DNA of 64,000 nt from an uncultured Chromatiales bacterium (GTDB lineage Bacteria > Bacteroidota > Ignavibacteria > SZUA-365): assembly GCA_964371045.1 (NCBI GenBank), contig CAYJMN010000015.1:1989-65988 (forward strand). The letters are read 5' to 3'. The notes under the pieces were generated by a model. That model did not search any database and was not told the DNA's origin. It saw only the letters and a list, made by a program, of their open reading frames with translations. Below are positions 2,509-28,831 of the stretch, piece by piece (within the stretch, counting starts at the first letter, position 1; each line of letters starts with the position of its first letter). The position numbers were made by a program, and so were the translations under genes.

Positions 2509-2599
2509 CGATGTACGATTTACGAATGACGATTGACGATTTGTAGCAATTACATCGCAAGTTCGTCAATCGTAAATCATTCAATCGTCAATCGTCATT
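2509..2599. repeat. Inverted arrays of heptamer tandem repeats (CGATTKA-like / CGTMAAT-like)
   Basis: Left arm cgatgta-cgattta-cgaatga-cgattga-cgatttg at 2509-2543; right arm cgtcaat-cgtaaat-...-cgtcaat-cgtcatt at 2564-2599. Confidence 0.8.
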
Positions 2600-4068
2600 C
2601 GGGGGCGGGTCTTGGTGGCGAGTTTGCGCATCTCGTCGAGTTCCTGGCGGGAGAAAAAGCCGGTGGCGCGGAGGAGGACGAAGAAGAGCGCGACGAGCAG
2701 CACTTTCCAGAGCAGCAAGGGCATGATGCTTGCAGCCGGGAACAGATACCAGAGCAATGCCGCAATGGTTAGGGAAAATGCGATACGAAGGAGGCGTGCG
2801 CTTTCCCACTCGATGGGATAAATCGATCGTCCCGTTACCCAGTACACCACCGCGATCGTAAAATAGGATGCAAAGGTGGCGATTGCCCCGCCGTACATGC
2901 CGAGGATGGGGATGAGCAGGAAGTTCGCGGCCACGTTGATCGCGGCGCCGGCCGCGGTTGTGTAGAGGATGATCATCGTACGTTTCTGTATGTACAGTCC
3001 GGCGTTCAACACCTGATCCATGCCCGCGAACACATAGCTGACGAGGATGATCGGCACAATGCCGAGGCCGCCCCAGAATTCAGGGGCGATGAGGCTGCGT
3101 CCTCCAGGGAGAGGCAGCCGGACGATATCCTCGATGAAAAGCGAGAGAACAAGGACGATGATCGAACCGAGCAGCACGAAATATGTCATTACACGTGCGA
3201 ATAACCGTTTCGCGCCGGGATCCTCCGTCAACTGGAGATAAAAGGGCTGCCAGGCGTAGCGGAAGATGCTCACCACCAACATCATGAAAATGCCGAGCTT
3301 GTAGGCCGCGCCATACACACCTACCGTCTCCGCGTCGGTGAGCAGCAGCAGGATCGGCTTGTCGATGATTTCGATGAGCATGATCGCGACGGCGCCCGGC
3401 ATCGTGGGGAGTCCGTATTTCAGCATTTGTCTCAACAGCGCGCGATCCACGCCACGCCGCGTTCTGCGGGTGATGACGGGAAGCAGCAGTAATGTACTGG
3501 ACGCCGATGCGATGACGCCCGACACGAACACCGACACGATGGACATGTGCAGCACGGCGATAAACAGCACGTTGAGCGAGACGTTCAGTACGATGGAAAC
3601 GAACTTGATCGTAGCGAAACTCCTGGCGCGGTTTTCCATTCGTAAGGCGGCGAACGGGATAGCGTTCACCGCGTCGAGCACGACTATCAGGATAGCGAGA
3701 GGCAGAATCGACTCCCACCCGACACGGTGTCCTATGAGGCCCTGCATATACGGAGTGAGAGGCAGCAACAGCGCGGCCAGCGCGATCCCCGCGAGGAGAA
3801 TGAAGAACAATGCTGCGCTGAAAATCCTGTCGCGCTCTTCACCCCTGGCGTTCGCAACGAAGCGCATGTATGCCGGCTCGAGCCCGAACGTGAACACTCC
3901 GTTCAGAAACGCTATGTACGCATACACCACAATGACGATCCCGTAGTCTCCTTTCAACAGCGTGTTGGTATAGAATGGCACGAGCAGAAACGTGATGAAG
4001 CGTCCCAAAATGTTGCTCACGCCGTAGATGGCGGAATCGGTGGTGAGTTTTTTCAGCAGTGCACGCAT
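2581..4068 (-). CDS. Oligosaccharide flippase / polysaccharide biosynthesis protein (Wzx/MOP family)
   Basis: About 12-14 hydrophobic segments; N-terminal SAIYGVSNILGRFITFLLVPFYT pattern and GAAIAT near the C-terminus. Confidence 0.88.
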   Translation of the reverse strand: MRALLKKLTTDSAIYGVSNILGRFITFLLVPFYTNTLLKGDYGIVIVVYAYIAFLNGVFTFGLEPAYMRFVANARGEERDRIFSAALFFILLAGIALAALLLPLTPYMQGLIGHRVGWESILPLAILIVVLDAVNAIPFAALRMENRARSFATIKFVSIVLNVSLNVLFIAVLHMSIVSVFVSGVIASASSTLLLLPVITRRTRRGVDRALLRQMLKYGLPTMPGAVAIMLIEIIDKPILLLLTDAETVGVYGAAYKLGIFMMLVVSIFRYAWQPFYLQLTEDPGAKRLFARVMTYFVLLGSIIVLVLSLFIEDIVRLPLPGGRSLIAPEFWGGLGIVPIILVSYVFAGMDQVLNAGLYIQKRTMIILYTTAAGAAINVAANFLLIPILGMYGGAIATFASYFTIAVVYWVTGRSIYPIEWESARLLRIAFSLTIAALLWYLFPAASIMPLLLWKVLLVALFFVLLRATGFFSRQELDEMRKLATKTRPRMTIDD

Positions 4069-4110
4069 GGAGCAACATCGAGAATTATATCGAGAAACTA
4101 AAAGGACTTT

Positions 4111-5088
4111 CGATTTTGGATTTACGATTTACGATTTTTAAGATTGACGATCACCCCCAGTGTTGTAACCGGCACTTCGCACGGCTGAAAACGCTCAGCT
4201 CGAAGACTCGCAATGTGTGCGTCAAATCGCAAAATCGTCAATCGTCGCCCTCGCCTCGCCGCGGCGAGCAAGTGCTCTCGAGTCTACATGTGCGTCACGG
4301 AACGAATCACTTCCGGAGGAATCTTCGACCTTCGAGACGCCGCTGACCCACGCTCTCGGAACAGCGAATGCTCGTACCGCAGCGGCCCTTGTTATGACAT
4401 CTTGTGGACCGTACCAACAAACACCGAGAAATCCGAACGCTGCTCCTTCGACTCCGTGCCCGTGAACGGCTGTGCATCTTCCACACATCTTGCTGCGGGC
4501 GCTTCGCTTCTTATGACATCTTGCCCGAATCGGCTTGAATACACTTGACCTCGTAAACTCACCCCCTCGATCCCGGCCTCTGTGTGTCTCGAACAACACA
4601 CCCCCCGGCCCCCTCTCTCACGAGAGAGGGGGAGGAAGAGGTGCAAATCAGTGTATATTTCACACATGCGAATTCATGTGCTGCGGTTACATGGAGCTAT
4701 TATCATGTCATCCATGAAATGGACTGGTGGGTACACTTCTTATGACATCTTGAAAGTACCTTGTCTCCTCGTGCGTTACGGAACGAATCATCCTTCGAGA
4801 CGCCGCCATCTGACACTCAATGCAATTACGAACGATCATACCGTGGCGGCCCTCAGGATGACGAGCTTGATAACGCGCGTCAGAAAACCTGATGTCATCC
4901 ACGAAATGGACCGGTGCGCAGCGCTGGTGGGCACACTCAGGATGACGATCTTTGATAGCTTTTTGAACCAATGTCACACTCGATATAAACCGGAGCGCAG
5001 CGAAGGTTACCCGACTCAGGGTGACGGGACTTGTTTACAACACCCTCAAATCGTAAATCCAAAATCGTAAATCGTAAATCGTAAATCC
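4111..5088. repeat. About 1 kb non-coding block bounded by inverted heptamer arrays and filled with degenerate REP-like units
   Basis: 4111-4137 cgattttggatttacgatttacgattt is complementary to the aaatcgt/aaatcca array at 5048-5088. Internal direct repeats lie at 4290-4309/4771-4790, 4329-4343/4792-4806 and 4392/4511/4740, with an 11-bp hairpin at 4609-4632. Confidence 0.75.
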
Positions 5089-5163
5089 TTGTGCCTGGCC
5101 GGTTTGTGAGCGGTTGCGGGTGATTGTACATTGCAGGATGTACAATCGTGAATATAAAAGGTT

Positions 5164-6093
5164 ATGAACATTCTAATTACCGGCGGTGCGGGATTCATCG
5201 GCTCATCGATCGCCGAGGCGTACAAGGCGCTCGGACATGAGATCGTCATCGTGGACAATCTGTCTACGGGCAAGCTGGAGAACGTACCGAGGGGAGCGGC
5301 GTTTTATCAGATGGATATTCGCGAAGATGGTTTCAGTGACATTGTTCGCGGGCACGCCATCGACATCATCAATCACCACGCGGCGCAAATCGACGTACGC
5401 AAGTCGGTGGAAGATCCGCGTTACGATCTGGAAGTGAATGTGCTCGGATCGCTGAACGTGATCGAAGCGGCGCTGGAAAACAATGTACGGCGTGTCATAT
5501 TCGCCTCGTCAGGCGGTGCGGGATACGGGGAGCAGGTATATTTTCCGGCGGATGAACAGCATCCCATCGCACCGTGCTCGCCTTACGGCATTACGAAAGT
5601 GACGGTCGAGCGCTACCTGTACTATTTCAACCAGGTGAAAAACCTCAATTATACCGTACTTCGTTACACCAACGTCTATGGCCCACGACAGAATCCGCAC
5701 GGCGAGGCGGGAGTTGTCGCGATTTTTTCTGACAAGCTCCTGCGGGGCAACAATCCCGTGATCAACGGCGACGGTGCGCAAACCCGCGATTACGTCTTCA
5801 TTGACGATGTGGTTCGCGCGAACGTCCACGCGCTCGCAATGGAGGACAGCGACACGCTCAACGTCTGCACCAACGTCGAGACCTCCGTCAACACGATTTT
5901 TCAGGTGCTTAATGCTACCGCAGGTTCGCCGGCGAAGGAAATTCATGTTCCCGCGAAGCACGGCGAACAGCTGCGGAGCGTGTGCAGCTACGAGCGGATT
6001 CGTTCACGTTTCGGTTGGGAGCCCGCCGTTTCCATTGAAACGGGATTGCAACGCACGATGGAGTGGTTCCGCGAGCGTTTCGAAGAAGAATAA
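5164..6093 (+). CDS. NAD-dependent epimerase/dehydratase (UDP-glucose 4-epimerase-like extended SDR)
   Basis: ILITGGAGFIGS Rossmann motif, HHAAQIDVRKSVEDP, SPYGITK (YxxxK), RYTNVYGPRQ. Confidence 0.92.
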   Translation: MNILITGGAGFIGSSIAEAYKALGHEIVIVDNLSTGKLENVPRGAAFYQMDIREDGFSDIVRGHAIDIINHHAAQIDVRKSVEDPRYDLEVNVLGSLNVIEAALENNVRRVIFASSGGAGYGEQVYFPADEQHPIAPCSPYGITKVTVERYLYYFNQVKNLNYTVLRYTNVYGPRQNPHGEAGVVAIFSDKLLRGNNPVINGDGAQTRDYVFIDDVVRANVHALAMEDSDTLNVCTNVETSVNTIFQVLNATAGSPAKEIHVPAKHGEQLRSVCSYERIRSRFGWEPAVSIETGLQRTMEWFRERFEEE

Positions 6094-6287
6094 CACCCGG
6101 CGGTCCGATAACCTGCGTCGCCTCCTCGCTGTCGCTTCGGGCGGTAGCCATGGTTTCGGGTCACATCCGGTTTATCCGATGGTGGCATACGCGACGCACC
6201 TTTTTGTTCTTGCCGCATTATCCGATACCGCTCCGCCAGTGAGTTAATCGGCGCCTTCACGTTCAGGTTTAAAATTCATCGCTCAGT

Positions 6288-6322
6288 GTGAATCATCCTC
6301 ACGAGACGTGAAATATATTCAC
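6288..6322. promoter_or_regulatory. Tandem GTGA-N7-TCAC palindromes, putative operator
   Basis: GTGA-atcatcc-TCAC at 6288-6302 and GTGA-aatatat-TCAC at 6308-6322, 20 bp apart and upstream of the 6452 gene. Confidence 0.45.
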
Positions 6323-6451
6323 TCCTTTGACGCGGCATCCCCAAAATACCCTGTAACTTCACAGTTGCGCATGGTGGTCAGTTTTGGCATGATTTATGAA
6401 GCAGTATTCATGCTCCAGCCCTGAGCGAACATTCAAAAACGGTGTCACCTT

Positions 6452-7219
6452 TTGTTCAGCACTTCCGAAACAGTCAAGGATCTCGAGACCATTGAAGGCC
6501 GTCGCCTTCTGCATGAATTTTTTCATGACCGGCGGGTGAAGAACACCATGGAATTGAAAACCCTGTTCGAATGCTGGAGAGTGTGCAGGCAAGCCACCAA
6601 TCTGCAGCTCAATGACGGACGCCGGATGCGTTTCGAAAGCAGTCTCGGTCTCAAGTTGGGTACGCGCGTTTTTTTCGAGGAAATTGTCAGTACCTACTAC
6701 TTCAATTCGATTCAGGGCCTCGTGTACTTCGGAGCGATGTTGGTATTGGTCGGAGTCGGATTGTATTTGAGCGGTTTCGATTTATTTTTCGCGCTTGGTG
6801 GGCTTGCGATCGAAGCGATCTTTTTGCTTTTGCTCGCCGTAGCGACATCGTTCAGCCGCAACGATGACGGCGGCACCCCGGCGACAGCCCTGGGATTGTC
6901 CGATACGCTGATTTCATCTATAAACAGTTCGATTCGCGACATGACAACGGCGGTGTCCGACCTGTTTCGCCTCATTTCCCAGACGGACATCCGTCAGGAC
7001 GTGCTGCTGACAAGGCTGACGGAAAACATCGCGAAAATCAACAACGAGAACGTGCGCAAGAATCTTGAAAAACTTGATCAGACCAATGCGATACTTCGCG
7101 AGCAAGCAGAGCTTTCCAACACCTTGCTGCAGAATCTTGTTCAGCAGCAGCAGCAGGCGACGCAACAGACGCGACGCATCCTGACGATCCTCGACGATCA
7201 GCAAGGGGCGAACGTATGA
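6452..7219 (+). CDS. GldL/PorL-like inner-membrane protein (copy 1); start uncertain (TTG 6452 or ATG 6548)
   Basis: TM hairpin GLVYFGAMLVLVGVGL...GGLAIEAIFLLLLA with intramembrane Glu121, then a long helical/coiled-coil tail. It resembles the GldL pattern YGMGAAVVIVGALF...GLLTEALIF (recalled from memory). Confidence 0.6.
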   Translation: MFSTSETVKDLETIEGRRLLHEFFHDRRVKNTMELKTLFECWRVCRQATNLQLNDGRRMRFESSLGLKLGTRVFFEEIVSTYYFNSIQGLVYFGAMLVLVGVGLYLSGFDLFFALGGLAIEAIFLLLLAVATSFSRNDDGGTPATALGLSDTLISSINSSIRDMTTAVSDLFRLISQTDIRQDVLLTRLTENIAKINNENVRKNLEKLDQTNAILREQAELSNTLLQNLVQQQQQATQQTRRILTILDDQQGANV

Positions 7220-7266
7220 GACTCCGGATCGATACTCGTAGCGATCACCGGTGGGGGCGTTGACGT

Positions 7267-8778
7267 GTGGCTCGCCGACATCGCATCGATATTTTCCTCA
7301 TCCTGTACCTTACGGCCATCGTGGGATTCGCGGTGGTTTCCAGAGAGCGTGAATTCGCGGATAAAGAGAGGACGTCCCGGTATGAACAGCTCCTTGCGAC
7401 GTTCATTCCTCGTCTCCCGGTTCGTCCTGAGCGCGATACGATTCGATGGTATGTAAGCGCGGATGACAACAGCGGCCTGGTTACGCTCACGGAGCAGCAT
7501 TTTGAAGCAAAAATTTTTGTTCACGATATAGATCCCGACGATCAGGTAACAATGACAGTGCATTCCATCATCCTCGACAGTCTGCTGACGGTGCCCGACC
7601 TTTTGAAGATCGGTGACCGTACGGGGTATGGAGAGCCGCACGAGCGCGTTGTGTACTTTCCACTGTGTGGTGAATTTCCCCGTACAGGGGTCTATACCAT
7701 CAACCTCCAAGCCCGTTCGGATCGCATTCGGCGATTGGGGCAAGGCATGATCGAGTACCGCGGCATTCAGTTCGACACCACTTCCATTCCATCCCACCTC
7801 GTGTCGTCGCTGGAAAGCTCCGTCGCCTCACTGACCGTGCTCGTGATCGATACCTCGATCGAGAAGCCAAAGACACTTGAGCCTCTGCTCATTCAAGCGC
7901 AGCGGGAACGCATTTCGTCTGCCATCGGCTTCGAGGAACAGAATCTCATCCGGGTCAATCTGGCCTGGTCAGAACCCACCGTGACGGTCGTGCGTGGCGG
8001 TGGGCGGCTTGTGCAGGCTACGCGGAGCGACAAGCTCCTTGAATACCGCTGGGTTGGCACCGTGACGGGATTCGCGGATACGGTGGTGGTGGAGGCGCGG
8101 CTGCGGCGCGAAGCGGGGGGTAAGGACATCAGCCGAACGCAATTCGTCGTTTCAGGAGTGACGCCATACCTTCTGGAGCAATTGCCGCGTACGCTGTACG
8201 CCGGCGAGGAATTTTCGATCAACATGCGTGTGCAGGGACTGGATCAGCCGGATCTGTATCGCTGGTCGTTGTTCGAAGAAGCCGGGCAGAACGATCTCCT
8301 TCTCAAAGCAAGTGGTAGTGGTCCGGTAGTGACCTACCGCATTCCCACGAGCTATGCCGGCAAGCGAATGGTGATCGAAACCCTGTATGAAGGCCGCAAG
8401 TATCGATTTCTTTCATTGAAAAAGCATGTTTCCGGTCCCTCGCGCTTGTCGCGGATGGTTGAGACGCCTCCGACGCAGATTGTCGCCATCGTTCCGCAGC
8501 GCGCACCGGCGAATGCCGCTTTCCGTTTTTCCGCATCGCGGTATTCCCAGCCCAGATTCATGGGCGAGCAGCCGGTCGACAAGATTTCGGATGTTTCCGT
8601 CGAAATGGAAGGCGCTGACGGTCGCGATCTGGAAGTCGGCGTTTCAATGATCCGCAAGGGAGAGTTTGAATTCGAGCTTATGAATATCGGCGAGATCGCC
8701 AGGGGCGGCGAGCGGGTAGCAATCACGATCCGTGCCGGCGACGCTCTATTTCTCCATTCCATGATTTTATTACGTTAG
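7267..8778 (+). CDS. GldM/PorM-like single-pass membrane protein with a large beta-rich periplasmic region (copy 1)
   Basis: Short basic N-terminus and one TM (RHRIDIFLILYLTAIVGF; R6...Y14), then about 470 aa of Ig-like beta segments. It is a clear paralog of the 9885 gene. Confidence 0.55.
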   Translation: MARRHRIDIFLILYLTAIVGFAVVSREREFADKERTSRYEQLLATFIPRLPVRPERDTIRWYVSADDNSGLVTLTEQHFEAKIFVHDIDPDDQVTMTVHSIILDSLLTVPDLLKIGDRTGYGEPHERVVYFPLCGEFPRTGVYTINLQARSDRIRRLGQGMIEYRGIQFDTTSIPSHLVSSLESSVASLTVLVIDTSIEKPKTLEPLLIQAQRERISSAIGFEEQNLIRVNLAWSEPTVTVVRGGGRLVQATRSDKLLEYRWVGTVTGFADTVVVEARLRREAGGKDISRTQFVVSGVTPYLLEQLPRTLYAGEEFSINMRVQGLDQPDLYRWSLFEEAGQNDLLLKASGSGPVVTYRIPTSYAGKRMVIETLYEGRKYRFLSLKKHVSGPSRLSRMVETPPTQIVAIVPQRAPANAAFRFSASRYSQPRFMGEQPVDKISDVSVEMEGADGRDLEVGVSMIRKGEFEFELMNIGEIARGGERVAITIRAGDALFLHSMILLR

Positions 8779-9005
8779 GACCCAACGGAGATGTCTGCCG
8801 GATTTGACACATATAGGAAGTTTGTGCGACCTTTAGATGATGTGGATGTTCAACGCATCCTTGAGCCGCTTTTCGTTGTAACGGGCTGCGGTTCAGGATC
8901 CGGTTTCCGCATTCATCGCATACTCCACGCGTTTACACATCAACAGATCGTTCCCGCACCCTCGCGGAGTGCGATTATACCATGTCTTGTTAGGAGGTTA
9001 TCCGT

Positions 9006-9848
9006 ATGAAGAGTAGTGGATTTCTTCGCCATCTTGTGCTTGGCGCCCTGCTGGTCGCCATGTTCTCGGCATTCGCCGCGCCAGTCTTGTACGCTCAGGA
9101 GGGCGGATCAGACATGATTTCGCTCGAGGAGATGAAAAACAAGCTGCGCGATGAAGGTAGAGGCCGCGATCTCAGTCAGCTTACCCATTCCGAATTGGAA
9201 CTGATCAAAAAATCACCAGGCGGGATGATTGGCAATCTTTTCAATACCGAGTATGTGTTCAAAATCGGTATCTCCACGTTCATCCTCAACCTGTTCGCGA
9301 TCATGCTCGTCACCTTCATTTCGTTTTTCGTCGTCGTGTTTTTCTTCACTCCCATAGGCATTTTTCTGTTCAGGGGCGGATTGCATGCGTTCGTGGGAGC
9401 GATCCTGAAATCGACGGGCCTGTCCACCAAGTTCGGCGACCATCTCATCAAGAAACCGAAGTACTGGCTGCAGAAGGAAAAGCGCGTACGTCAGGGATTC
9501 GCGATGTACATGCACAACGATTTTATTCCGGACTACAAGAACAACATCACCGCCATCGCCTTTATCGGAACCGCGTTCCTTATTCTCAACATCGGTCTCC
9601 GCGGTGTGAAATTCATGACGGCGCATGAGCCCAGCCTCATCGTTATCGCCATCCTCGTGGAAATCACCGTGCTTTTACTCCTCGGTATGACCACATGGTA
9701 CGAGAAGGAAGAGAAGGACGACGAAGCAGGCGCAGGCGCGGGACTTCCTGGAAAGCAGCTTTCTCTGGCCGAGGTCGAGCGCAAGCTTGATGCACTCAAG
9801 CAGGAACTCGAGTCAAGCGTTCGTACGGAAACAGGTCTTCGCCAGTAA
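9006..9848 (+). CDS. GldL/PorL-like membrane protein (copy 2) with a signal peptide and an extra TM segment
   Basis: Signal peptide ending VLYA-QE, a hydrophobic segment at about aa 88-122, a basic loop, the hairpin AIAFIGTAFLILNIGLR...IAILVEITVLLLLG (Glu219), and a short coiled-coil tail. Confidence 0.5.
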   Translation: MKSSGFLRHLVLGALLVAMFSAFAAPVLYAQEGGSDMISLEEMKNKLRDEGRGRDLSQLTHSELELIKKSPGGMIGNLFNTEYVFKIGISTFILNLFAIMLVTFISFFVVVFFFTPIGIFLFRGGLHAFVGAILKSTGLSTKFGDHLIKKPKYWLQKEKRVRQGFAMYMHNDFIPDYKNNITAIAFIGTAFLILNIGLRGVKFMTAHEPSLIVIAILVEITVLLLLGMTTWYEKEEKDDEAGAGAGLPGKQLSLAEVERKLDALKQELESSVRTETGLRQ

Positions 9849-9884: not shown

Positions 9885-11489
9885 ATGGCAAGTTCAGGCG
9901 ATCATTATAAAAAATACCAGGTCTATTTCTTCCTGTATCTCGCCGTCATCTGCGAGCTGCTCATCATCATCGTGGAACGCGATGATGCCGAAGCGGAACT
10001 GATGGCGCAGCAGCGCGCACTGGAAGAAAAAAACCGCCGCATCATCCTCGAGCTGCTCAAGAATATGCCTGCGGTAGCCGCCGCGGGCGACAACCAGCTC
10101 AAGGTCAACGAAGAACGTAAATTCACCATCTCGGTCAAGGGTCTTGGCGATTCCGATGAAGTCACCACCCCACCCGAAGTGAAAGTCTATAAGGAAGGCC
10201 TCGAAGTACAGACGCTTCGCTACCCGGATCAGATTCAGGATTCCATCCGGCACGCCGCTACGGGAGAGCGCCTGTATCGCTTCACCTGGAAGGCCGAACT
10301 GGGCCCGGGTATCTTTGAATTGTGGGTGCAAGCGGGTACGAACCGCGTATCCTTGCAGCCGGACATCGAGGAAGGTAAAGGAAAAATAAAGGTCGGCTCG
10401 CTCGAGTTCACGCGCAAGGAAATCCGCAGCGCGCTCGATTCCGATCCCCAGATGGTTGGTGTACCCATTGAAGAGATTATCCGTCAGTCGGAAAATCTGA
10501 CTCCCGACAAGTTCGTGGTGGAGGTCGTTTCCGAAGAGTACGATCAACTCCAGATTCAGGCGGATCAGCTCGTGACCGCGGTAGGTTTCCCCAGCTTCAA
10601 CGAAATCAAGGTTCGCGGCACTACGGTCGACAAGATCTCCGGCATGCCCATCGTGGGCGGAGGTATTGCTCTTGATCCTTTGAATCGATCCAATCCGTAT
10701 TACAATACCGATCCCGAGCGCGGACGCTGGGTCTGGTCCGGCACGTTCAACGAAGCAGGCACACGCCGCATTACCGTTGAGGCGCGCGACAGACGCAACG
10801 CAGGCGCGAAGAGCGTATCGCGGCCGATCAGCTTCGACGTCATCGTTAAAAAACCGTACCTGAGCCGTAGAAGGCCGCCGGGTGCTTTCATCAACGAAGT
10901 ATTCGAGATGTATCTCAACGTCGCTGGTCTCGAGGACGTTGGAAGCTACACCTACGAGATCGCGCTGGATGGCAAGGAAGTCGAAAGCGGCTCAGGAAAC
11001 GTCATCAAGTATAAGGTGCCGAGTGACGCCATCGGAAAAGCGATGATTATCAAATCGAAATATCGCAACAGACCCTATCAGGTGCTGGTGGATTCCGCGG
11101 CGGAGAACCTGACCACATCCGAATTCGTGTTCAACGTATCGGCGCCGATCGACAGAATCGGGTCGCAATCCTTCGCGAACGGTGGCGAGTATCCCATCAA
11201 CAACGTCTTCCAGTTCGTCGCGGCCCGTTGCGGACGCTGCGTAGGTGGAAATATCCGGAATATTCAGCAATCCGACATTCGCATCGAAGCGGAATCCGAA
11301 GACGGCCAGGATCTGGTTGACGAAGTGCAGGTCATGCCCCGGACGAATCCCAATACCGGCATGGAGCAGGGAAGTCTCGTCAAATTCTTCCTGAAGGGCA
11401 AGGTCAAGCGTGATGGTACGGAAGCCACGATTACCATTAGGTATGGTACCGTGAACGAGAAGTACAATGTCATGTTGTACTCCGAATAA
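9885..11489 (+). CDS. GldM/PorM-like single-pass membrane protein (copy 2)
   Basis: MASSGDHYKKYQVYFFLYLAVICELLIIIVER (K10...Y18, LYL motif), a helical stalk, then Ig-like domains that align with the 7267 protein (PYL...P...F...V.GL...SGSG.V..Y..P...GK.M.I...Y..R.Y). Confidence 0.55.
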   Translation: MASSGDHYKKYQVYFFLYLAVICELLIIIVERDDAEAELMAQQRALEEKNRRIILELLKNMPAVAAAGDNQLKVNEERKFTISVKGLGDSDEVTTPPEVKVYKEGLEVQTLRYPDQIQDSIRHAATGERLYRFTWKAELGPGIFELWVQAGTNRVSLQPDIEEGKGKIKVGSLEFTRKEIRSALDSDPQMVGVPIEEIIRQSENLTPDKFVVEVVSEEYDQLQIQADQLVTAVGFPSFNEIKVRGTTVDKISGMPIVGGGIALDPLNRSNPYYNTDPERGRWVWSGTFNEAGTRRITVEARDRRNAGAKSVSRPISFDVIVKKPYLSRRRPPGAFINEVFEMYLNVAGLEDVGSYTYEIALDGKEVESGSGNVIKYKVPSDAIGKAMIIKSKYRNRPYQVLVDSAAENLTTSEFVFNVSAPIDRIGSQSFANGGEYPINNVFQFVAARCGRCVGGNIRNIQQSDIRIEAESEDGQDLVDEVQVMPRTNPNTGMEQGSLVKFFLKGKVKRDGTEATITIRYGTVNEKYNVMLYSE

Positions 11490-11555
11490 ACGGCGAATCG
11501 CATGACCACGATATTCGCGAAGTTGAACGACAAACCCGATAGCAGAGGATATTCC

Positions 11556-13601
11556 ATGAGCAAGCAACTCATTGTACGTGCCCTATTCGTCGTGGCACTC
11601 CTTGCAATGTTCACGCCGCCGCTTTTCGCCCAGGTGGACCGCGACGTCAAGGAGAAGCAGGGTGACCTGAAAGAGGAGTACAACGACGCCCAGGAGAAAA
11701 ACCAGATCATCCGGTCCGCCGCGCAGGACAAACCGCGCGCATCGACCGGCCGCCGTCGCACAAGCGCGACGACGGGTTATGACTATACGCAAGTGAAGGG
11801 TTTCGCCCTGAAACAGTTCTATGATCGTATCGATAAGGTGTTCGAGCGCGCCAACGACCTGGGATTGTTCGAGGAGGAATACCGTCTCGACGGTACCTTT
11901 GAAGTCGCGGGCCGCAAAGGTAAAGGCAGCACCCAGGTTCGCAAGATCGAAGTGTACTACGTTGAAGCGACGCCGGAGGAACAGGAAAACTACGGCATCG
12001 AACCTTTCCAGATCATCGAAGTGTACGTCGAGAAACTCGAGGTCCTGCCGCCGGAGGAAACCGGTACGGAAGACGCCGAGGACGGTGAAGGCTTCGGAGA
12101 TTTCGGCGGTTCAAGCGGTGAGCCCGTTGCGAAAGGCTTCACGGTTTCGGGTTCCGATCTGATGAGCGTCCTGCAGCTCGCCGACGAAGCGTTGTACGAC
12201 GACCTTCTCAGCAAGCGCAGCCAGTCCACTTCCATCGCTCTTCCCGAGCGTGGCGACTGGATGCCCGGCAAAGTCGGTCCCTTTATCGTGATGACGCAGC
12301 GAGAGCTGGAAACGACAACCAGCCGCTTCACGGATTTCTGGAGCACCCGCGATACGCTCGAGGGCTCTGTGCAGATTCCGCAGTTCGACGCGGCCGGCCC
12401 TTTCTACGAACAGTCTATTCCGGTATTTTTCCCGGAAATAACGAAACTGCGCATCCGCAATCCTGAAAACCGTCCGGTAAAAATCACGAACATTCAGTTC
12501 GTCGGTCCGAACGCGGACATGTTCGAGGTCAAGTCCAAGTTCCCGATTCAACTCACCGAGAAGAACGGGACTTTGGACAAAATCGACATCGAATACAATT
12601 TCCTCAGCGACACGAAATACGAGACGCGTGGGCAGATGTTGATCGATGCGAAGGAAGCGGGTCTGCAACAGTACGTGGATGTGATGGCCAATCCCGGCAT
12701 TCATCCGGCGGATTTCGTCACCCTCGACGCATCCCTGGACAAGATTTCGCTTCGATCGCCCGCCCGTTCAGGCTTTGCACCCAACTGGAGACTTTCCTAT
12801 ACGATCGGGAATGATGAGATCGGTCTTCCGCGGTGGTCAACCGGTATTTCTTCGCTTTCCATTGGATTCAAAAACCAGATGAGCGTAGGCGTCGTTCTGC
12901 CGATGAACATGATCGCACCGGATCTCCCGAGCCCGCTCGCGTTCAACAAGGGTCTGCTTTCATCCCCATCGGGATACAGTGCCTCCTTCGACTTCACGTT
13001 CGGTTTCCCGTTCTCGCTGGGAGGCAGCCTGTACGTCATCAACGATTTCGACGGCCAGGACGCGTACAGTCATCTCAAGGTGAGCAACGTCGGTCCGGAG
13101 TTTCAGGGCGACGCTGATTACCGCGGCGATTTCTTCCATCTATCGACCATCGCCCTGGTGTACTATCCCATCATGTTCAAGGACAAGGCCTTCAACGCCA
13201 ACATGGCCTTCCGTTTGAATATCGGTGGTGGTTACCTGAACGTCAGGCGCGATCATCTCGTTTCCGATTTCGAAGCGGAACAAGGGGTGATAAAACTCGA
13301 TCGGCAGTTCAAGCTCGAAGATGCGGGGACAATGGTGACGCTGGGCAAGCAGAAGGACTATTTCGACGTATATGTCCGCATGTCCTTCATCAATCTGAGT
13401 TCCACCAATCGTTACGGCCTTGGTCTTCAGTACTTCTCCGGTCGCATGATGACGGATGCCTTCCTCGAACTGACGAGCTGGCTTCGCGTCGAGGCGAAAT
13501 ATTCCTTCCTGCTTCGCACGAAGGAGGTGTGGGAGAGCGAGAACAGCTACTTCCTGATCACGCCCCGTCTGCGCATCGGGCTTCCTTCCATTTTTAATTG
13601 A
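11556..13601 (+). CDS. Secreted protein with an Ig-like (ASH/choice-of-anchor D-like) domain and a C-terminal beta-barrel
   Basis: RBS AGAGGA and ATG at 11556; signal peptide ending PLFA-Q; LRIRNPENRPVKITNIQFVG Ig-like strands; a C-terminal series of amphipathic beta strands. Confidence 0.6.
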   Translation: MSKQLIVRALFVVALLAMFTPPLFAQVDRDVKEKQGDLKEEYNDAQEKNQIIRSAAQDKPRASTGRRRTSATTGYDYTQVKGFALKQFYDRIDKVFERANDLGLFEEEYRLDGTFEVAGRKGKGSTQVRKIEVYYVEATPEEQENYGIEPFQIIEVYVEKLEVLPPEETGTEDAEDGEGFGDFGGSSGEPVAKGFTVSGSDLMSVLQLADEALYDDLLSKRSQSTSIALPERGDWMPGKVGPFIVMTQRELETTTSRFTDFWSTRDTLEGSVQIPQFDAAGPFYEQSIPVFFPEITKLRIRNPENRPVKITNIQFVGPNADMFEVKSKFPIQLTEKNGTLDKIDIEYNFLSDTKYETRGQMLIDAKEAGLQQYVDVMANPGIHPADFVTLDASLDKISLRSPARSGFAPNWRLSYTIGNDEIGLPRWSTGISSLSIGFKNQMSVGVVLPMNMIAPDLPSPLAFNKGLLSSPSGYSASFDFTFGFPFSLGGSLYVINDFDGQDAYSHLKVSNVGPEFQGDADYRGDFFHLSTIALVYYPIMFKDKAFNANMAFRLNIGGGYLNVRRDHLVSDFEAEQGVIKLDRQFKLEDAGTMVTLGKQKDYFDVYVRMSFINLSSTNRYGLGLQYFSGRMMTDAFLELTSWLRVEAKYSFLLRTKEVWESENSYFLITPRLRIGLPSIFN

Positions 13602-13615
13602 AAGGGGGCGGTATC

Positions 13616-15331
13616 ATGAAGAATGTTCCATTTTCAAGCACGGAAATACAAGGCATGCAGACGAAACACCGACTTCTCCCGTTCCTGGTTCTGGTCTTCA
13701 TCGCAGCGCTGGTCGCCCCTTCGTTTGTTCAGGCGCAAAGCTCCGGCGATGCGCTGACGAATGTAGAACAGATCCTGCGTTTCATGAAGAGCGCGAACTA
13801 TTCCGAGGATGACATGCTTCGGCGCATGGCATGGGGCGACAAGATCGTCACGGACATGGCATCCTACCGTCCCGGCGAAGACGACCGCCAGAACTATCTC
13901 CGCTTGCTCGACGTCGCCATCGACCATTACAAGGACGAGAACGATCGTCTCCGCGTACTTCTTCGCGCGTTGACCAGTCTCGATCCGCTCGTCAACAAGT
14001 ACTTCCCGCAGTGGATTATCCAGGACGAACCGACCATCCTCGAAGTCATGCGCAAGGTCCGCGACAACCGTGACGATCTTCGCGACGCCGAGGCGGTGAC
14101 GATCGCCGAACGTGTGCTTACCGGAAAAGCGCGCATGCGCATTATCCAGAGCCCGAAGGACGATCAGAACCTGATCGCCATTATTATCGAGAAAGCCCGA
14201 CCGCACGACGAGGAAAACCTGTCCGCCGGCTTCATGACGAACAAGGATAACAGCGACTTCGACGATTACCGCATCGTCGGCCGCCGCAATCTCCGCGAAG
14301 TCCTGACGCCCGACCTCTACGATTATGTCGTGCGCCGCGAGTCGTATGCGCATCTGGACGAAACCGGCGCCCTCAAACCGGCTCCGTATGTCGCCGAAGC
14401 CACCATCAGCATTCCTTTCGGTGGCGGATTTCTGTGGACGCTCGATGCGGACGAACGTGCGAGCGATGGCGTCGCATTGCAGCCATCGCGCATTCGCGCC
14501 GGTTTCGAACTGAAGATCGGCAACGATTGGGTCAACCTGCCTTTTCTCTATGGAGCGCAGTGGAACACCTTGTTCGTTTACGAACCTTCGAGCACCGAAC
14601 GCATCAAAATCGGCCCGTCCATCCCCTTCGGCTTTGGCGACATCACCGTGAAGGATGATTTCCCGGTCTTCCAGCCCCGCACCATCAACGGCACATGGGG
14701 CGCCGCCGGTGAATACTTCAAGCAGCTTTCCAACACCGCGGGTACTGTAGGTTCCGATGCCGACGGTATCGGCGCGGCCGCCTTTGTTTCCTTCGGGCTT
14801 CCCAAGCTTGGAAACAAAAAGATCACGGACGCCAACGGCACGATTATCAACGGCGAGGAGGTCAATCAGGTATATGACCCGAACGACCCCGGAAAGTCGT
14901 TCCTCATGAACCGATTCTATTATCTCGCTTCGACGGCCACGCTGTATTACTGGCGCGATCTGGGCTTTGCCCTGGATGGTTTGCGAATTGCGGCTGGTCT
15001 CGGTCACCAGAAGGTTATCGAGGCTCAGCGCCGCGATCCCGCTCTGTTCCCCGGTTCGGATCCGAACCTTATATTCGATTCCGTCCGCACGGTGGCTGAT
15101 CACACCACTCTTGACCTGTTCGCGCGACTGACCTACGATCACATGGGTAAAACCAGCTACGGTGTCGCCATGCAGTATTTCAACGGTGGCCTGATGGGTG
15201 AAGTATATCTGCACATCTTCTCATGGATGCGCGCGGAAGTAAAATACTCACGTGTCGTTTTCCGTGATGTGGAGAAGTGGGAACACGAAGAGATGATCGT
15301 TCCGGGTCTCAGATTCGGGTTCGCGTTCTGA
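13616..15331 (+). CDS. Outer-membrane beta-barrel protein with a helical N-terminal domain, paralog of the 11556 gene
   Basis: Signal peptide ending VQA-Q, about 13-14 amphipathic strands, and a C-terminal PGLRFGFAF (aromatic beta-signal). It shares IGND and the YG...QYF.G..M......SW.R.E.KYS segment with the 11556 protein. Confidence 0.65.
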   Translation: MKNVPFSSTEIQGMQTKHRLLPFLVLVFIAALVAPSFVQAQSSGDALTNVEQILRFMKSANYSEDDMLRRMAWGDKIVTDMASYRPGEDDRQNYLRLLDVAIDHYKDENDRLRVLLRALTSLDPLVNKYFPQWIIQDEPTILEVMRKVRDNRDDLRDAEAVTIAERVLTGKARMRIIQSPKDDQNLIAIIIEKARPHDEENLSAGFMTNKDNSDFDDYRIVGRRNLREVLTPDLYDYVVRRESYAHLDETGALKPAPYVAEATISIPFGGGFLWTLDADERASDGVALQPSRIRAGFELKIGNDWVNLPFLYGAQWNTLFVYEPSSTERIKIGPSIPFGFGDITVKDDFPVFQPRTINGTWGAAGEYFKQLSNTAGTVGSDADGIGAAAFVSFGLPKLGNKKITDANGTIINGEEVNQVYDPNDPGKSFLMNRFYYLASTATLYYWRDLGFALDGLRIAAGLGHQKVIEAQRRDPALFPGSDPNLIFDSVRTVADHTTLDLFARLTYDHMGKTSYGVAMQYFNGGLMGEVYLHIFSWMRAEVKYSRVVFRDVEKWEHEEMIVPGLRFGFAF

Positions 15332-15487: not shown

Positions 15488-16834
15488 ATGCTGCATGTGA
15501 TCACATCTCTACTGGCGCCGCTGCTGGTCATGATTCTGCTGCAACCAGCGATGCGGAATCCCTCCGCCGTACCCCTCGCGAACTCTGAAGCCGACAGCCT
15601 TCGCAAGCCAACCATCATTTCAGCACGTACCAAGGATCCGCAACGGGTCAACGTCTCGATACGGGCGGTGGATATCAGCCGCTATCCTGAAGCGAGCGTC
15701 ATTCTCGATGCCCGCGATACCGCCAACAACCATTTCGCTCATCTGGTGAAAAGCGACCTGGTGATACTTCAGGACGGACTGCCGGTGAAAATCGAGAGTC
15801 TCGACCGCATTTCCGCGGACAACAGTCTTCCGGTCGACATTGCGTTCATTATTGATCAGACAGGCAGCATGCAACAGGAAGTGAACGAGGTGAAGGCCAA
15901 TATCATCGAATTCACGCGCCGTCTCGCATCAAGAGGTGTGGATTACCGTCTTGCGCTGATCTCCTTCAGCGACCGTATCGAACGGTACCAGGATTTCACG
16001 GAAGATGTGAAGACGTTCATTTCATGGATCGATGGTGTGAAAGTGGGAGGAGGAGGGGACGACAATGAAAATGCGCTGGAAGGACTCTTCGAGGCCACGT
16101 CGTTCAAATTCAGGCAATCGGCGCAGCGCATTTTTATCCTCATCACCGATGCGATGTATCATCAGAAAGGCGAGAGAGGCGACGGGAAAACGGATTTCAC
16201 GACAGCGTCGATGATCGATTTTCTCGTCAAACAAAATATCAAGCTTTTTGCGATCACTCCGCCGCTGATGGACGAATACCGGCAGATGACCGAAACCACG
16301 AGAGGGAAACGGTTCAACATCATTGAAGATTTCAGTTCGATACTCGATGAGTTCAGCGAGAGTCTGACAAACCTGTACGCGGTCAGGTACAGGATTTCCG
16401 ATGAAGTACCACCCGAAAAAATTGATCTTGAAATCAGAAATATGAACAACGAGACCGTGCTGCGCGAATCGCATACGGTGCTCGAAGTCGATAAAAAATT
16501 CGTTCTGGATAATATTCTGTTCGATTTCAACCGCGCCACGTTCGACATGACGTACACCGACGATCTTGGCAGGATCATCGCCATGCTGAATATGTATCAG
16601 GGGATGCACATCGAAATTCGCGGACACACCGATTTTATCGGAAGCGACGAGTACAACGTCGCGCTCTCCGACGCCCGCGCCCGCGCGGTGAAGAAGTTTT
16701 TCTCGGATCGCGGCGTCAGCACGGATCGCATGACTACGCGCGGTATGGGGAAATCACAGCCTGTGGCGCCAAACGATACCGAACTGGGACGACGCCTCAA
16801 CCGCCGCACCGAGATCGTCATTACGCGCAAGTAA
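15488..16834 (+). CDS. vWA domain plus OmpA-like peptidoglycan-binding domain protein
   Basis: VDIAFIIDQTGSM (MIDAS), RIFILITDA; C-terminal NILFDFN...IEIRGHTD..GSDEYN..LS..RA..V...NRRTE. Confidence 0.9.
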   Translation: MLHVITSLLAPLLVMILLQPAMRNPSAVPLANSEADSLRKPTIISARTKDPQRVNVSIRAVDISRYPEASVILDARDTANNHFAHLVKSDLVILQDGLPVKIESLDRISADNSLPVDIAFIIDQTGSMQQEVNEVKANIIEFTRRLASRGVDYRLALISFSDRIERYQDFTEDVKTFISWIDGVKVGGGGDDNENALEGLFEATSFKFRQSAQRIFILITDAMYHQKGERGDGKTDFTTASMIDFLVKQNIKLFAITPPLMDEYRQMTETTRGKRFNIIEDFSSILDEFSESLTNLYAVRYRISDEVPPEKIDLEIRNMNNETVLRESHTVLEVDKKFVLDNILFDFNRATFDMTYTDDLGRIIAMLNMYQGMHIEIRGHTDFIGSDEYNVALSDARARAVKKFFSDRGVSTDRMTTRGMGKSQPVAPNDTELGRRLNRRTEIVITRK

Positions 16835-26751: not shown

Positions 26752-28530
26752 TTGGCCTCCCGCGGAACCATATCGCACAGGCGCCGCCTGACAGTGCTAT
26801 CGTCCCTTCTCGGGGCGATAGTGTTTTTACCGGGCTGTCTCTCGTTGATCGCAACGGTGCGCGTTCCCGCGGATGTGCCGCTGGATCATGAATTCTCCGT
26901 GGTCGTAGACGGATCCGTCGTGGGTCACGGCGGAGGTATCGCCGCGCTTGTGGTGCAGTATCCAGAGGAATTCGAACTTGTGGGCGCGTATTATGCAGGC
27001 GATATGGCCAAGCGCGCACTGCGGCGCCACACCATCATCGGGAAGAGGTTCAAAGCCGAAGCCGGACAAGTCGTCGCAGCGCTGGCCGATTCTCTTCCGC
27101 CATCGCGTTTCAACGACGCGGCGCTGCGGGTATTTCTTCGGTTCGTTCCGAAGAAAACCGGGTCTTTCACTCTTAAGTTTGCGTGCGGGGTCGTCGCGGA
27201 GGACCGCGGCCGACTCGCATGGAAAACCACCGATCCAACCGGCATCCTCGATTTCGCGGATATCGCGGACGAACGCTACACTCGGCCGGTGCGCGTGCTG
27301 TATCCGGAACGGAACGGCACCGCCTCGATCGCTCTCTCGGGGAAGCGCGAGTACCTGCTGTTTCCCGACAGCGGATTATTTCAACTGTCGCTCTCCCGCG
27401 ATTTTTCCGTCGAGAGTTGGTGCCGAACCGTGTCGACGGAGGTTCCGCTGCTCAGTACGCGGAGCGACGATTTTCACGGTGCGCATCCTTTCGATCTGTC
27501 CGTCAACGCATGGGGTGAGGCCGAACTGCGATGCGCAGACGGTCGGAGGACATATCGAAGCGGCAGGGGAACGTTCATCGCGGATGGAATCTGGCATCAT
27601 CTGGCGGCAAGTTATTGCGCCGACAGTCTCCGCTACGAATTGTTCATCGACGGAGTCCCGGCGGACACGCTGTATCTCCCCGCGTCGATGAGGGAAGTGA
27701 CGGCCGGAGAACTTCTTCTCGGAACCACGCGGGCGCGCCGGCAATTCGCTGAAGCGGAGTTCGACGAACTGCGTCTCTGGGAGAATTGCCGGAACGAGCA
27801 AGAGGTCGATTACTACAAGGATCTGCCGCTCAGCGGATACGAATCCAATCTTTACGCCTTGTTTTCCTTCGATGCCGGCAGCGACGGAATGATCCCCGGG
27901 CTGTCGCAGATCGAGGGCCTTGTCGCATACGCGTACAATCGTCCGCGGCTCGTGGTCTCCACCACGCCGCTGCGGCTTGAACTCCTGGCGTTCAACGCGG
28001 CGATGATGGACGATTCGGTACGGATGAACTGGGAAACCTACGACGAAAGCAAAGTGCGGATTTACGAAGTGGAGAAGCGGACCGAGTCCGGACGCTACAG
28101 CGTGTTTCAACAGATCCAGCCGGAGAGGAATCCCTCACGGCACCAGGTATACATGGTGGCGGATTCGTGGGACGGAAAGATGATCGCGTACTACAGGTTG
28201 CGGAAAATCAATATGGACGGCACGGTGATATTTTCCGCGGAGACACCGATCGGCACGGAGAGTCTTTTGAATTTTACGCTTGAGGACAACAGCCCCAATC
28301 CATTTACGGACAGCACCGTGATCGGATACACGATTTCGAAGCGCACCAGGGTGGATCTCGCGGTATACGACATGATGGGCCGCGAGGTGAGCGTGCTTGT
28401 GGCCGAACGTCAGGAGCCGGGGACGCACAGCGCGACCTTTGTTGCGGGCGATTTGCCGGGCGGCATGTATTTTTATAAAATGCGCACCGGCTCTGGTTCT
28501 CAAACAAAAAAGATGTATCTTGCGCGGTGA
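26752..28530 (+). CDS. LamG-like jellyroll protein with T9SS type A C-terminal sorting domain
   Basis: FSVESW...DGIWHHLAASY...LFIDG...FDELRLW (LamG); NSPNPFTDSTVIGY...YDMMGREV...GMYFYKM...KKMYLAR (CTD). Confidence 0.85.
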   Translation: MASRGTISHRRRLTVLSSLLGAIVFLPGCLSLIATVRVPADVPLDHEFSVVVDGSVVGHGGGIAALVVQYPEEFELVGAYYAGDMAKRALRRHTIIGKRFKAEAGQVVAALADSLPPSRFNDAALRVFLRFVPKKTGSFTLKFACGVVAEDRGRLAWKTTDPTGILDFADIADERYTRPVRVLYPERNGTASIALSGKREYLLFPDSGLFQLSLSRDFSVESWCRTVSTEVPLLSTRSDDFHGAHPFDLSVNAWGEAELRCADGRRTYRSGRGTFIADGIWHHLAASYCADSLRYELFIDGVPADTLYLPASMREVTAGELLLGTTRARRQFAEAEFDELRLWENCRNEQEVDYYKDLPLSGYESNLYALFSFDAGSDGMIPGLSQIEGLVAYAYNRPRLVVSTTPLRLELLAFNAAMMDDSVRMNWETYDESKVRIYEVEKRTESGRYSVFQQIQPERNPSRHQVYMVADSWDGKMIAYYRLRKINMDGTVIFSAETPIGTESLLNFTLEDNSPNPFTDSTVIGYTISKRTRVDLAVYDMMGREVSVLVAERQEPGTHSATFVAGDLPGGMYFYKMRTGSGSQTKKMYLAR

Positions 28531-28624: not shown

Positions 28625-28831
28625 GTCATTATCTTTAATGTGAGAAGAAGATTATCAACGGTTAAAGAACCAGACGCATCCGGGATAGATTGACCTGTCG
28701 CAGTTTCACGGTCGACAAACAGTGTGTCACAATGGATCCCCCCACTGCTCACTTATCTCCACATTCACTACAGACAATACATGAACCATATCATCACTTT
28801 TTTTTATTCCCCAACTGCTAGGAGGTATTTC

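Follow-up and report, generated by a model that had tools for sequence, protein, structure and literature searches.

A duplicated pair of membrane proteins in uncultured Bacteroidota, a possible remote variant of the GldLM motor

How far can two adjacent, unannotated membrane genes be read as the ion-driven motor of an envelope-spanning machine? The question is raised by L1 and M1, which lie near the start of a 64,000-nucleotide (nt) stretch of contig CAYJMN010000015.1 (assembly GCA_964371045.1, positions 1,989 to 65,988 of the forward strand; hereafter the window) from an uncultured bacterium titled Chromatiales and placed among the Ignavibacteria of the Bacteroidota. A preliminary description, made from the letters alone, had proposed that the transmembrane (TM) helices of both products keep the motor-type residues of GldL and GldM and, with them, the ion-coupling chemistry. 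Residues and an architecture like those of GldL/GldM are indeed present, but the retention of the chemistry is unsupported: E121 of L1 is Gln, Thr or Val in 5 of 88 relatives, and Y14 of M1 is Phe in about 20%. Kinship of L1/M1 with the GldLM motor is weakly supported by the sequences. By analogy, and with slightly less than even confidence, we read the pair as a divergent GldLM-like, ion-driven inner-membrane module of an envelope-spanning machine. The L/M family is unannotated, literature searches found no description of it, and it is best described as a variant of the GldLM, or 5:2-motor, kind.

The interval 6452-7340, on which the proposal was based, comprises the whole L1 open reading frame (ORF) and the first 24 codons of M1. 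The translation of 6452-7219 contains GLVYFGAMLVLVG with Y92 (codon 6725-6727), and also GGLAIEAIF, which holds E121 (codon 6812-6814), while the M1 translation (7267-8778) opens V/M-ARRHRIDIFLILYLT and carries R6, D8 and Y14; all of these residues were confirmed in the places first assigned to them. Reference residues were taken from the PDB 6YS8 sequences, namely GldL Y13 and E49 and GldM R9 and Y17, which bears out the Flavobacterium numbering given earlier. The spacing of 8 from Arg to Tyr likewise holds in both M1 and GldM.

L1 is laid out as a putative cytoplasmic N-terminal domain, a two-helix membrane hairpin and a long cytoplasmic helix. Its AlphaFold2 (AF2) model, with a predicted local distance difference test score (pLDDT) of 71.7, has helices at residues 84-106 and 111-133, which form the hairpin, and at 151-253, with a disordered linker between the hairpin and the last helix and a low-confidence, small alpha/beta domain at the N-terminus. 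The inter-helix loop is of about 4-5 residues (S-G-F-D), uncharged, with only G108 conserved and with basic flanks, and from the positive-inside rule we infer that both ends of the hairpin are cytoplasmic. The extra N-terminal domain of about 85 residues, described earlier as lacking in GldL, is real: L1 homologues align from residue 1, and the first helix of Flavobacterium (Fj) GldL starts at about residue 9. In 82 homologues, most of them of 255 amino acids (aa), the first 85 residues include many invariant positions, and conserved residues of the domain include E15, G16, R17, H25, R27, W42, D55, R57, G70, T71, R72, E76 and E77. Several homologues have ATG at the position of the window's TTG, and the database copy of this L1 has 223 aa, 32 residues fewer than the ORF read here. 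A Pfam scan of the domain gave no match, and a PilZ-like identity was dropped since no Pfam profile matched. All 88 L1 homologues are named hypothetical and none has Pfam domains; a Foldseek search with the L1 model found nothing significant.

Conservation in L1 peaks in the cytoplasmic helical segment 164-190 (within helix 151-253), not in the hairpin. Among L1 relatives Y92 is kept in 87 of 87, and position 121 is occupied by Glu in 83 of 88, by Gln in three, and by Thr and Val in one each. Positional entropy in both helices peaks at a period of 100 degrees, indicating one conserved face per helix, and Y92 and E121 lie 42 and 28 degrees, respectively, from the centre of that face. Because both residues are on conserved faces, it can be argued, indirectly, that they face protein rather than lipid. 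The conservation of these residues is higher than would be expected of passive membrane helices.

M1 crosses the membrane once and has some 450 residues in the periplasm, an orientation judged from the distribution of charge and from the absence of a signal peptide. The AF2 model (pLDDT 84.8) has a helix at 2-46, followed by strands that fall roughly into the groups 50-195, 209-295, 300-400 and 403-503. In 23 diverse M1-type sequences the R6 position holds Arg in 18, Gln in three, Lys in one and Ser in one; the D8 position holds Asp in 12, Glu in seven, Asn in three and His in one; and the Y14 position holds Tyr in 18 and Phe in five. In M1 relatives R6, D8 and Y14 are thus each conserved to about 80%, the remainder having Phe in place of Y14. 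Residues F10, F11, L15 and F21 are better conserved than R6, D8 or Y14. In the N-terminal half of the helix conservation is seen on all sides, as would be expected if the M helix were an enclosed axle. R6 belongs to a run of four or five basic residues. Within single genomes, L1 proteins with Gln or Thr at 121 are accompanied by an M1 with intact Arg, Asp and Tyr, and M1 proteins with F14 by an intact E121; since an altered position 121 pairs with an unchanged M1 and vice versa, there is no compensation between changes in the two. The L1 and M1 genes of relatives are 6 nt apart or overlap by 4 nt. Foldseek matches of the M1 model are generic Ig/cadherin/titin arrays, and M1 relatives give weak PKD/Ig matches in the Pfam scan.

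Downstream is a second pair, L2/M2, which is followed by the genes X and Y and by a gene for a protein with VWA and OmpA-like domains. L1 and L2 are related at BLASTP E 7e-4, and their hairpins at an hhalign probability of 82% (E 1e-5). L2 has an invariant E219 (codon 9660-9662) and Phe at the Y92 position; its hairpin is nearly invariant in 19 orthologues, with Glu in all 19 distinct hairpin sequences. In M2 the TM segment, KKYQVYFFLYLAVICELLIIIVERDD, includes K10 and Y18 together with E24 (codon 9954-9956), an intramembrane residue that is invariant. The N-termini of M1 and M2 match at an hhalign probability of 95.5% (E 1.4e-8), R6 corresponding to K10, D8 to Q12 and Y14 to Y18, with E24 added in M2; the R6-x7-Y14-L15 of M1 is therefore K10-x7-Y18-L19 in M2. 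The M2 membrane helix (HYKKYQVYFFLYLAVICELLIIIVERD), with E24 at mid-membrane, is almost invariant across genomes. Identities across genomes are 30-61% for M1, 47-81% for L1, 57-88% for M2 and 50-81% for L2, with one outlying locus, L004, at 42% for L2 and 45% for M2. Overall, conservation is higher in M2, L2, X, Y and OmpA/VWA than in L1, and far higher than in M1. L2/M2 has a stronger motor-like signature than L1/M1, and of the two paralogous L/M pairs L1/M1 evolves faster. Locus L004 also has an extra M2-like gene (12433-13929, 498 aa) between M1 and L2, and the L1 of that genome has Gln at 121.

More distant systems have a single pair. One distant lineage has a pair of L2/M2 type, an L of 235 aa and an M of 551 aa, followed by X, Y and OmpA/VWA. 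In locus L029 the L, as in the case of L2, has additional hydrophobic segments at its N-terminus. Another locus (L031, 77-4716, GCA_016218065.1) encodes a minimal L-like protein of 183 aa, whose N-terminus is short as in GldL, and a 459-aa M-like protein. This pair is directly upstream of an 806-aa Wza-type Poly_export/SLBB polysaccharide exporter, which suggests that some members of the L/M family may work with polysaccharide export. The L helix-2 Glu and the M-helix Tyr are kept in L1/M1, in L2/M2 and in the two distant single-pair systems. Neither the Tyr of L helix 1 nor the Arg eight residues before the M Tyr is kept across the pairs: the R6 spacing is lost in distant M-like proteins, and Y92 is replaced by Phe in L2 and by Leu in the minimal L. 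This pattern mirrors GldLM, where invariance is confined to E49 and Y17, whereas Y13 and R9 are highly conserved (10.1101/2020.05.11.089193). According to the same preprint, the two tyrosines flank a salt bridge between R9 and E49, and R9 is a probable topogenic signal in GldM.

The architecture and the L hairpin carry the comparison with GldLM. As in GldL/GldM (PorL/PorM; PDB 6YS8, 7SAT, 7SAU, 7SAX and 7SAZ), the L gene precedes an adjacent M gene, and the hosts belong to the same phylum. GldL shares with L1 the two-helix hairpin, the cytoplasmic C-terminal helical region and the helix-2 Glu in G-[LF]-x-x-E-A, while GldM, or PorM, shares with M1 the single pass, a length of about 500 aa, a basic-x7-Tyr-Leu in the helix and an elongated multi-domain periplasmic part. 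The L hairpin alone yields a positive sequence signal to GldLM. When all 177,635 PDB sequences were searched at E<=10 with a hairpin profile of L1 (59 columns), Sphingobacterium GldL (7SAX) was the sole match (E 1.6), in an alignment that spans both helices and puts Glu on Glu, and a profile of L1, L2 and the two distant L types still had GldL (7SAX) as its top match, at E 0.18. E121 is aligned with GldL E49 by both hhalign and HMMER. All five GldL/PorL hairpins scored higher than segment-preserving shuffles, with p values of 0.25, 0.10, 0.19, 0.03 and 0.0006, with a Fisher combined p of about 3e-4 for five sequences that are not independent. This signal is suggestive of remote relatedness to, or convergence with, GldL.

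If L1/M1 is a GldLM-like module, two M1 helices would be enclosed by several L1 hairpins and would be set in motion as the buried E121 gains and loses protons. M1 Y14 and L1 Y92 would line the proton path, and R6, or the neighbouring arginines, might serve as an ion-pair partner. The four Ig-like domains of M1 would reach across the periplasm, and torque or conformational change would pass via M1 to partners in the outer membrane. The analysis shows the order of the genes, the layout of helices in the two models, conservation, paralogy, synteny and the narrow distribution; ring-and-axle assembly, proton coupling, rotation and the task of the machine are all drawn here by analogy.

A number of results weigh against this reading. 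L1, M1, L2 and M2 have no Pfam or NCBIfam match at E<=1; as a positive control, Fj GldL residues 1-62 match Pfam GldL_N (PF22827) at E 1.4e-20, and the GldM profiles lack such a control, the 47-residue Fj GldM N-terminus having matched none of them. An exhaustive HMMER search of 1.84 billion representatives with the M1 profile returned only 62 proteins, so small a number that canonical GldM, a large family, cannot be part of it; none resembles canonical GldM, and no bridge was found. Nor did the 89 proteins found with the L1 alignment profile provide a bridge to GldL. Against PDB, the full-length L1 profile gave only coiled-coil noise, and the M1 and M2 N-terminal, full L2 and L2 hairpin profiles gave nothing or one spurious match each. 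The L hairpin signal comes mainly from one of the five GldL/PorL sequences, and the hhalign probability of L against GldL is just 8-15%. Moreover, the profile alignments put Y92 one residue after GldL Y13 (G94-A95 on G16-A17). Position 13 itself is Ile in the GldL of 7SAX. The M helix has no significant match to GldM (hhalign P 0.08-0.14, shuffle p 0.12-0.37), although the best alignments keep the R/K-x7-Y register.

The structural and genetic comparisons add further differences. GldM and PorM have a helical periplasmic domain, D1, followed by three Ig-like domains, and carry the motif RQKMINLMYLV, and the periplasmic loop of GldL has invariant K27 and H30, which contact GldM D1. In contrast, the M1 model has four beta-sandwich domains and no helical domain corresponding to D1, no GldM or PorM chain is among its top 50 Foldseek matches, and L1, with its long N-terminal domain and very short loop, has no K27/H30 loop. 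Unlike GldLM, the module is duplicated, and in place of the gldK-L-M-N context, with no GldK or GldN profile match among the neighbours, it is followed by the secreted, unrelated X and Y and by VWA-OmpA. At the residue level, neither E121 nor Y14 is invariant, as given above, and three genomes with another residue than Glu at 121 (Gln in two, Thr in one) retain the whole cluster. R6 is part of a generic positive-inside cluster, such as any N-in anchor would have on its cytoplasmic side. The Pfam scan of 52 M-family members also gave weak matches to GldM_3rd in two (E 0.0015) and to GldM_2nd in one unique member (E 0.06); these were given no weight as support, being rare, weak and outnumbered by generic PKD/Ig matches.

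Several of these points would suit a static anchor or scaffold for a periplasm-spanning Ig protein, in which Glu and Tyr only stabilise helix packing and no ions flow. The lack of significant homology to any motor family, the uncharged residues that replace E121 while the cluster is kept and the generic PKD/Ig folds of the M periplasmic domains all fit such a role. We nevertheless consider it unlikely: a buried carboxylate that is invariant in the 19 L2 hairpins and present in both distant L-like proteins would be costly in a helix that is only structural, the almost invariant M2 helix is under far more constraint than an anchor needs, and the top PDB match of the hairpin is GldL. If ions do flow, the proton-carrying carboxylate might instead be on the single-pass subunit (M1 D8, M2 E24), in the style of MotAB, ExbBD and TolQR, the L Glu being accessory. 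D8 is acidic in 19 of the 23 M1-type sequences and stands immediately before the hydrophobic helix, a position shared by the Asp of TolR, ExbD and MotB; it is kept in genomes with Gln or Thr at L1 121, M2 has its invariant mid-membrane Glu, and the extra N-terminal segments of L2 and of the L029 protein recall, by eye, MotA/ExbB topology. However, no L or M profile has a PDB match to ExbB, TolQ, MotA, ExbD, TolR or MotB at E<=10, D8 aligns with Gln in M2, and three M1-type sequences have Asn in its place, so that this chemistry seems to us less probable still than a scaffold.

A further explanation, as improbable in our judgement as the MotAB-style chemistry, is that L2/M2 is the working module and L1/M1 a relaxed duplicate, regulatory, concerned with assembly or degenerate, whose motor residues are partly vestigial. 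It would account for the lower conservation of M1 and L1 across genomes, for the nearly invariant helices of L2 and M2 while E121, Y14 and D8 vary, for the distant lineage that has only an L2/M2-type pair with X, Y and OmpA/VWA, and for the confinement of the extra N-terminal domain to L1. It is difficult to reconcile with the presence of L1/M1 in every genome that has the seven-gene cluster L1-M1-L2-M2-X-Y-OmpA/VWA, and invariant Y92 and segment 164-190 indicate strong purifying selection. We therefore keep to a divergent GldLM-like module as the tentative reading of L1/M1.

The make-up of the seven-gene cluster itself suggests an envelope-spanning machine. Pfam and NCBIfam scans of X and Y were without a match; the two proteins share a module of some 150 residues at the C-terminus (E 2e-14), and the terminal residue of Y is aromatic, as in outer-membrane proteins; both are presumed to be outer-membrane partners. 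The order flippase (on the minus strand), epimerase, L1, M1, L2, M2, X, Y and OmpA/VWA is the same in all loci that extend far enough to reveal it; the cluster was followed across about 20 species genomes, and flippase and epimerase adjoin it in about 20. The complete 5.24 Mb genome GCA_027493955.1 is among those with the cluster. This conserved pair and the distant Wza-like neighbour hint at a link to surface polysaccharides. The coordinates of these features are collected in Table 1.

Table 1. Genes and segments of the L/M cluster and its neighbours, by position in the window
Feature	Positions	Strand	Description
Wzx-like flippase	2581-4068	-	orthologues in relatives carry Polysacc_synt
NAD-dependent sugar epimerase	5164-6093	+	Pfam match
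L1 gene	6452..7219	+	255 aa, TTG start; ORF and translation
L1 N-terminal domain (~83 residues)	6452..6700	+	conserved throughout in L1 orthologues
L1 TM helix 1 (aa 84-106)	6701..6769	+	invariant V91-Y92; conserved stripe N85-G89-Y92-A95-L99-L106
L1 TM helix 2 (aa 111-133)	6782..6850	+	E121; conserved stripe E121/A122-L125-A129-T132
Most conserved L1 stretch (aa 164-190, MTxAVSDLFRLISQTDIRQDVLLTRLTE)	6941..7021	+	run of invariant columns
M1 gene	7267..8778	+	503 aa, GTG start; N-terminal membrane helix, then four beta-sandwich domains
M1 N-terminus and TM helix (aa 1-24)	7267..7340	+	R6 codon 7282-7284, D8 7288-7290, Y14 7306-7308
L2 gene	9006..9848	+	280 aa; L1 paralogue in the hairpin, extra N-terminal hydrophobic segments
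M2 gene	9885..11489	+	534 aa; full-length M1 paralogue (BLASTP E 1e-23)
X (699 aa) and Y (577 aa)	11502..15331	+	signal-peptide-like N-terminus in each
VWA and OmpA-like peptidoglycan-binding protein	15488..16834	+	Pfam OmpA E 4e-19, VWA E 8e-13; last gene of the cluster

L1 relatives were found in only 22 of 185,579 species-representative genomes. All are metagenome-assembled genomes (MAGs), with the labels Bacteroidota, Ignavibacteria or Chlorobiota except for a few bins whose labels are probably wrong, and the cluster is confined to a small group of uncultured Bacteroidota. Four MAGs with the cluster (loci L013, L021, L023 and L025) are titled Chromatiales or Ectothiorhodospiraceae, and these labels are probably wrong, because gene content and similarity point to Bacteroidota. 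Proteins with C-terminal domains for type 9 secretion sorting (Por_Secre_tail), above the Pfam cut-off, are encoded at 26752-28530 (+), 46951-49233 (-) and 61905-63737 (+), with a weak match at 28724-32584 (+). As the window encodes at least three such cargo proteins, the organism would have a type 9 secretion system (T9SS); no canonical T9SS core gene is within the window. The gap between M1 and L2 (8779-9005) has a counterpart in relatives, of some 145-370 nt and usually of 240-280. It may contain a promoter or a regulatory element that separates the two pairs, and a 72-aa ORF at 8791-9009 is probably not a gene. The gap between flippase and epimerase (4069-5163) is about 1.1 kb here and about 160 nt in relatives. 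It is edged by inverted (GATTTAC)n arrays of 7-nt units at 4102-4138 and 5048-5090, has internal direct repeats about 470 nt apart, and looks like an insertion of the miniature inverted-repeat transposable element (MITE) type or another non-autonomous one. An Rfam scan of 4000-9100 gave no match.

To our knowledge, few families of ion-driven membrane motors have been described (Mot, Exb/Tol, Agl, Gld/Por and Zor). The 5:2 motors MotAB, ExbBD, TolQR, AglRQS and ZorAB are like the L/M pairs in combining a multi-helix with a single-pass subunit and in having a carboxylate at or in the single-pass helix (D8 in M1, E24 in M2). The extra N-terminal hydrophobic segments of L2 are reminiscent of MotA or ExbB, and the OmpA-like peptidoglycan binder at the end of the cluster recalls Pal and MotB. 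There is no sequence or profile match to link these motors with the L/M pairs, whose single-pass subunit has Ig-like arrays in place of a small periplasmic or OmpA-like domain, and L1 has two helices only. The Glt/Nfs machinery of Myxococcus, which is driven by AglRQS, offers a comparison by analogy only: it likewise couples an inner-membrane motor to periplasmic and outer-membrane proteins, and there is a shared genomic association with polysaccharide genes, here the flippase and epimerase and, beside the distant L/M pair, the Wza-like exporter.

A broader proposal, which we regard as possible but doubtful, is that this cluster of uncultured Bacteroidota is an unrecognised ion-driven, envelope-spanning machine, in which two distinct stator-like modules, a 2-TM, GldL-like L1 with M1 and a multi-TM L2 with M2 that have carboxylates on both subunits, would drive the outer-membrane proteins X and Y and the VWA-OmpA anchor. 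Its role might be the export of cell-surface glycans or movement, or it might be an alternative power source for the T9SS, in a lineage with T9SS cargo. We know of GldLM so far as a single family tied to type 9 secretion. If the reading of L1/M1 is true, a remote, duplicated GldLM-like family with other periplasmic and outer-membrane partners would widen this class of motor. Such a family would also supply variants, made by nature, of the proposed proton path, with Glu changed to Gln, Tyr changed to Phe, or a carboxylate transferred to the axle helix. It would predict a 5:2 stoichiometry, null phenotypes of E121 and E219 mutants and sensitivity to loss of the proton-motive force, and it would imply that an energised process, so far uncharacterised, takes place at the outer membrane of these uncultured Bacteroidota.

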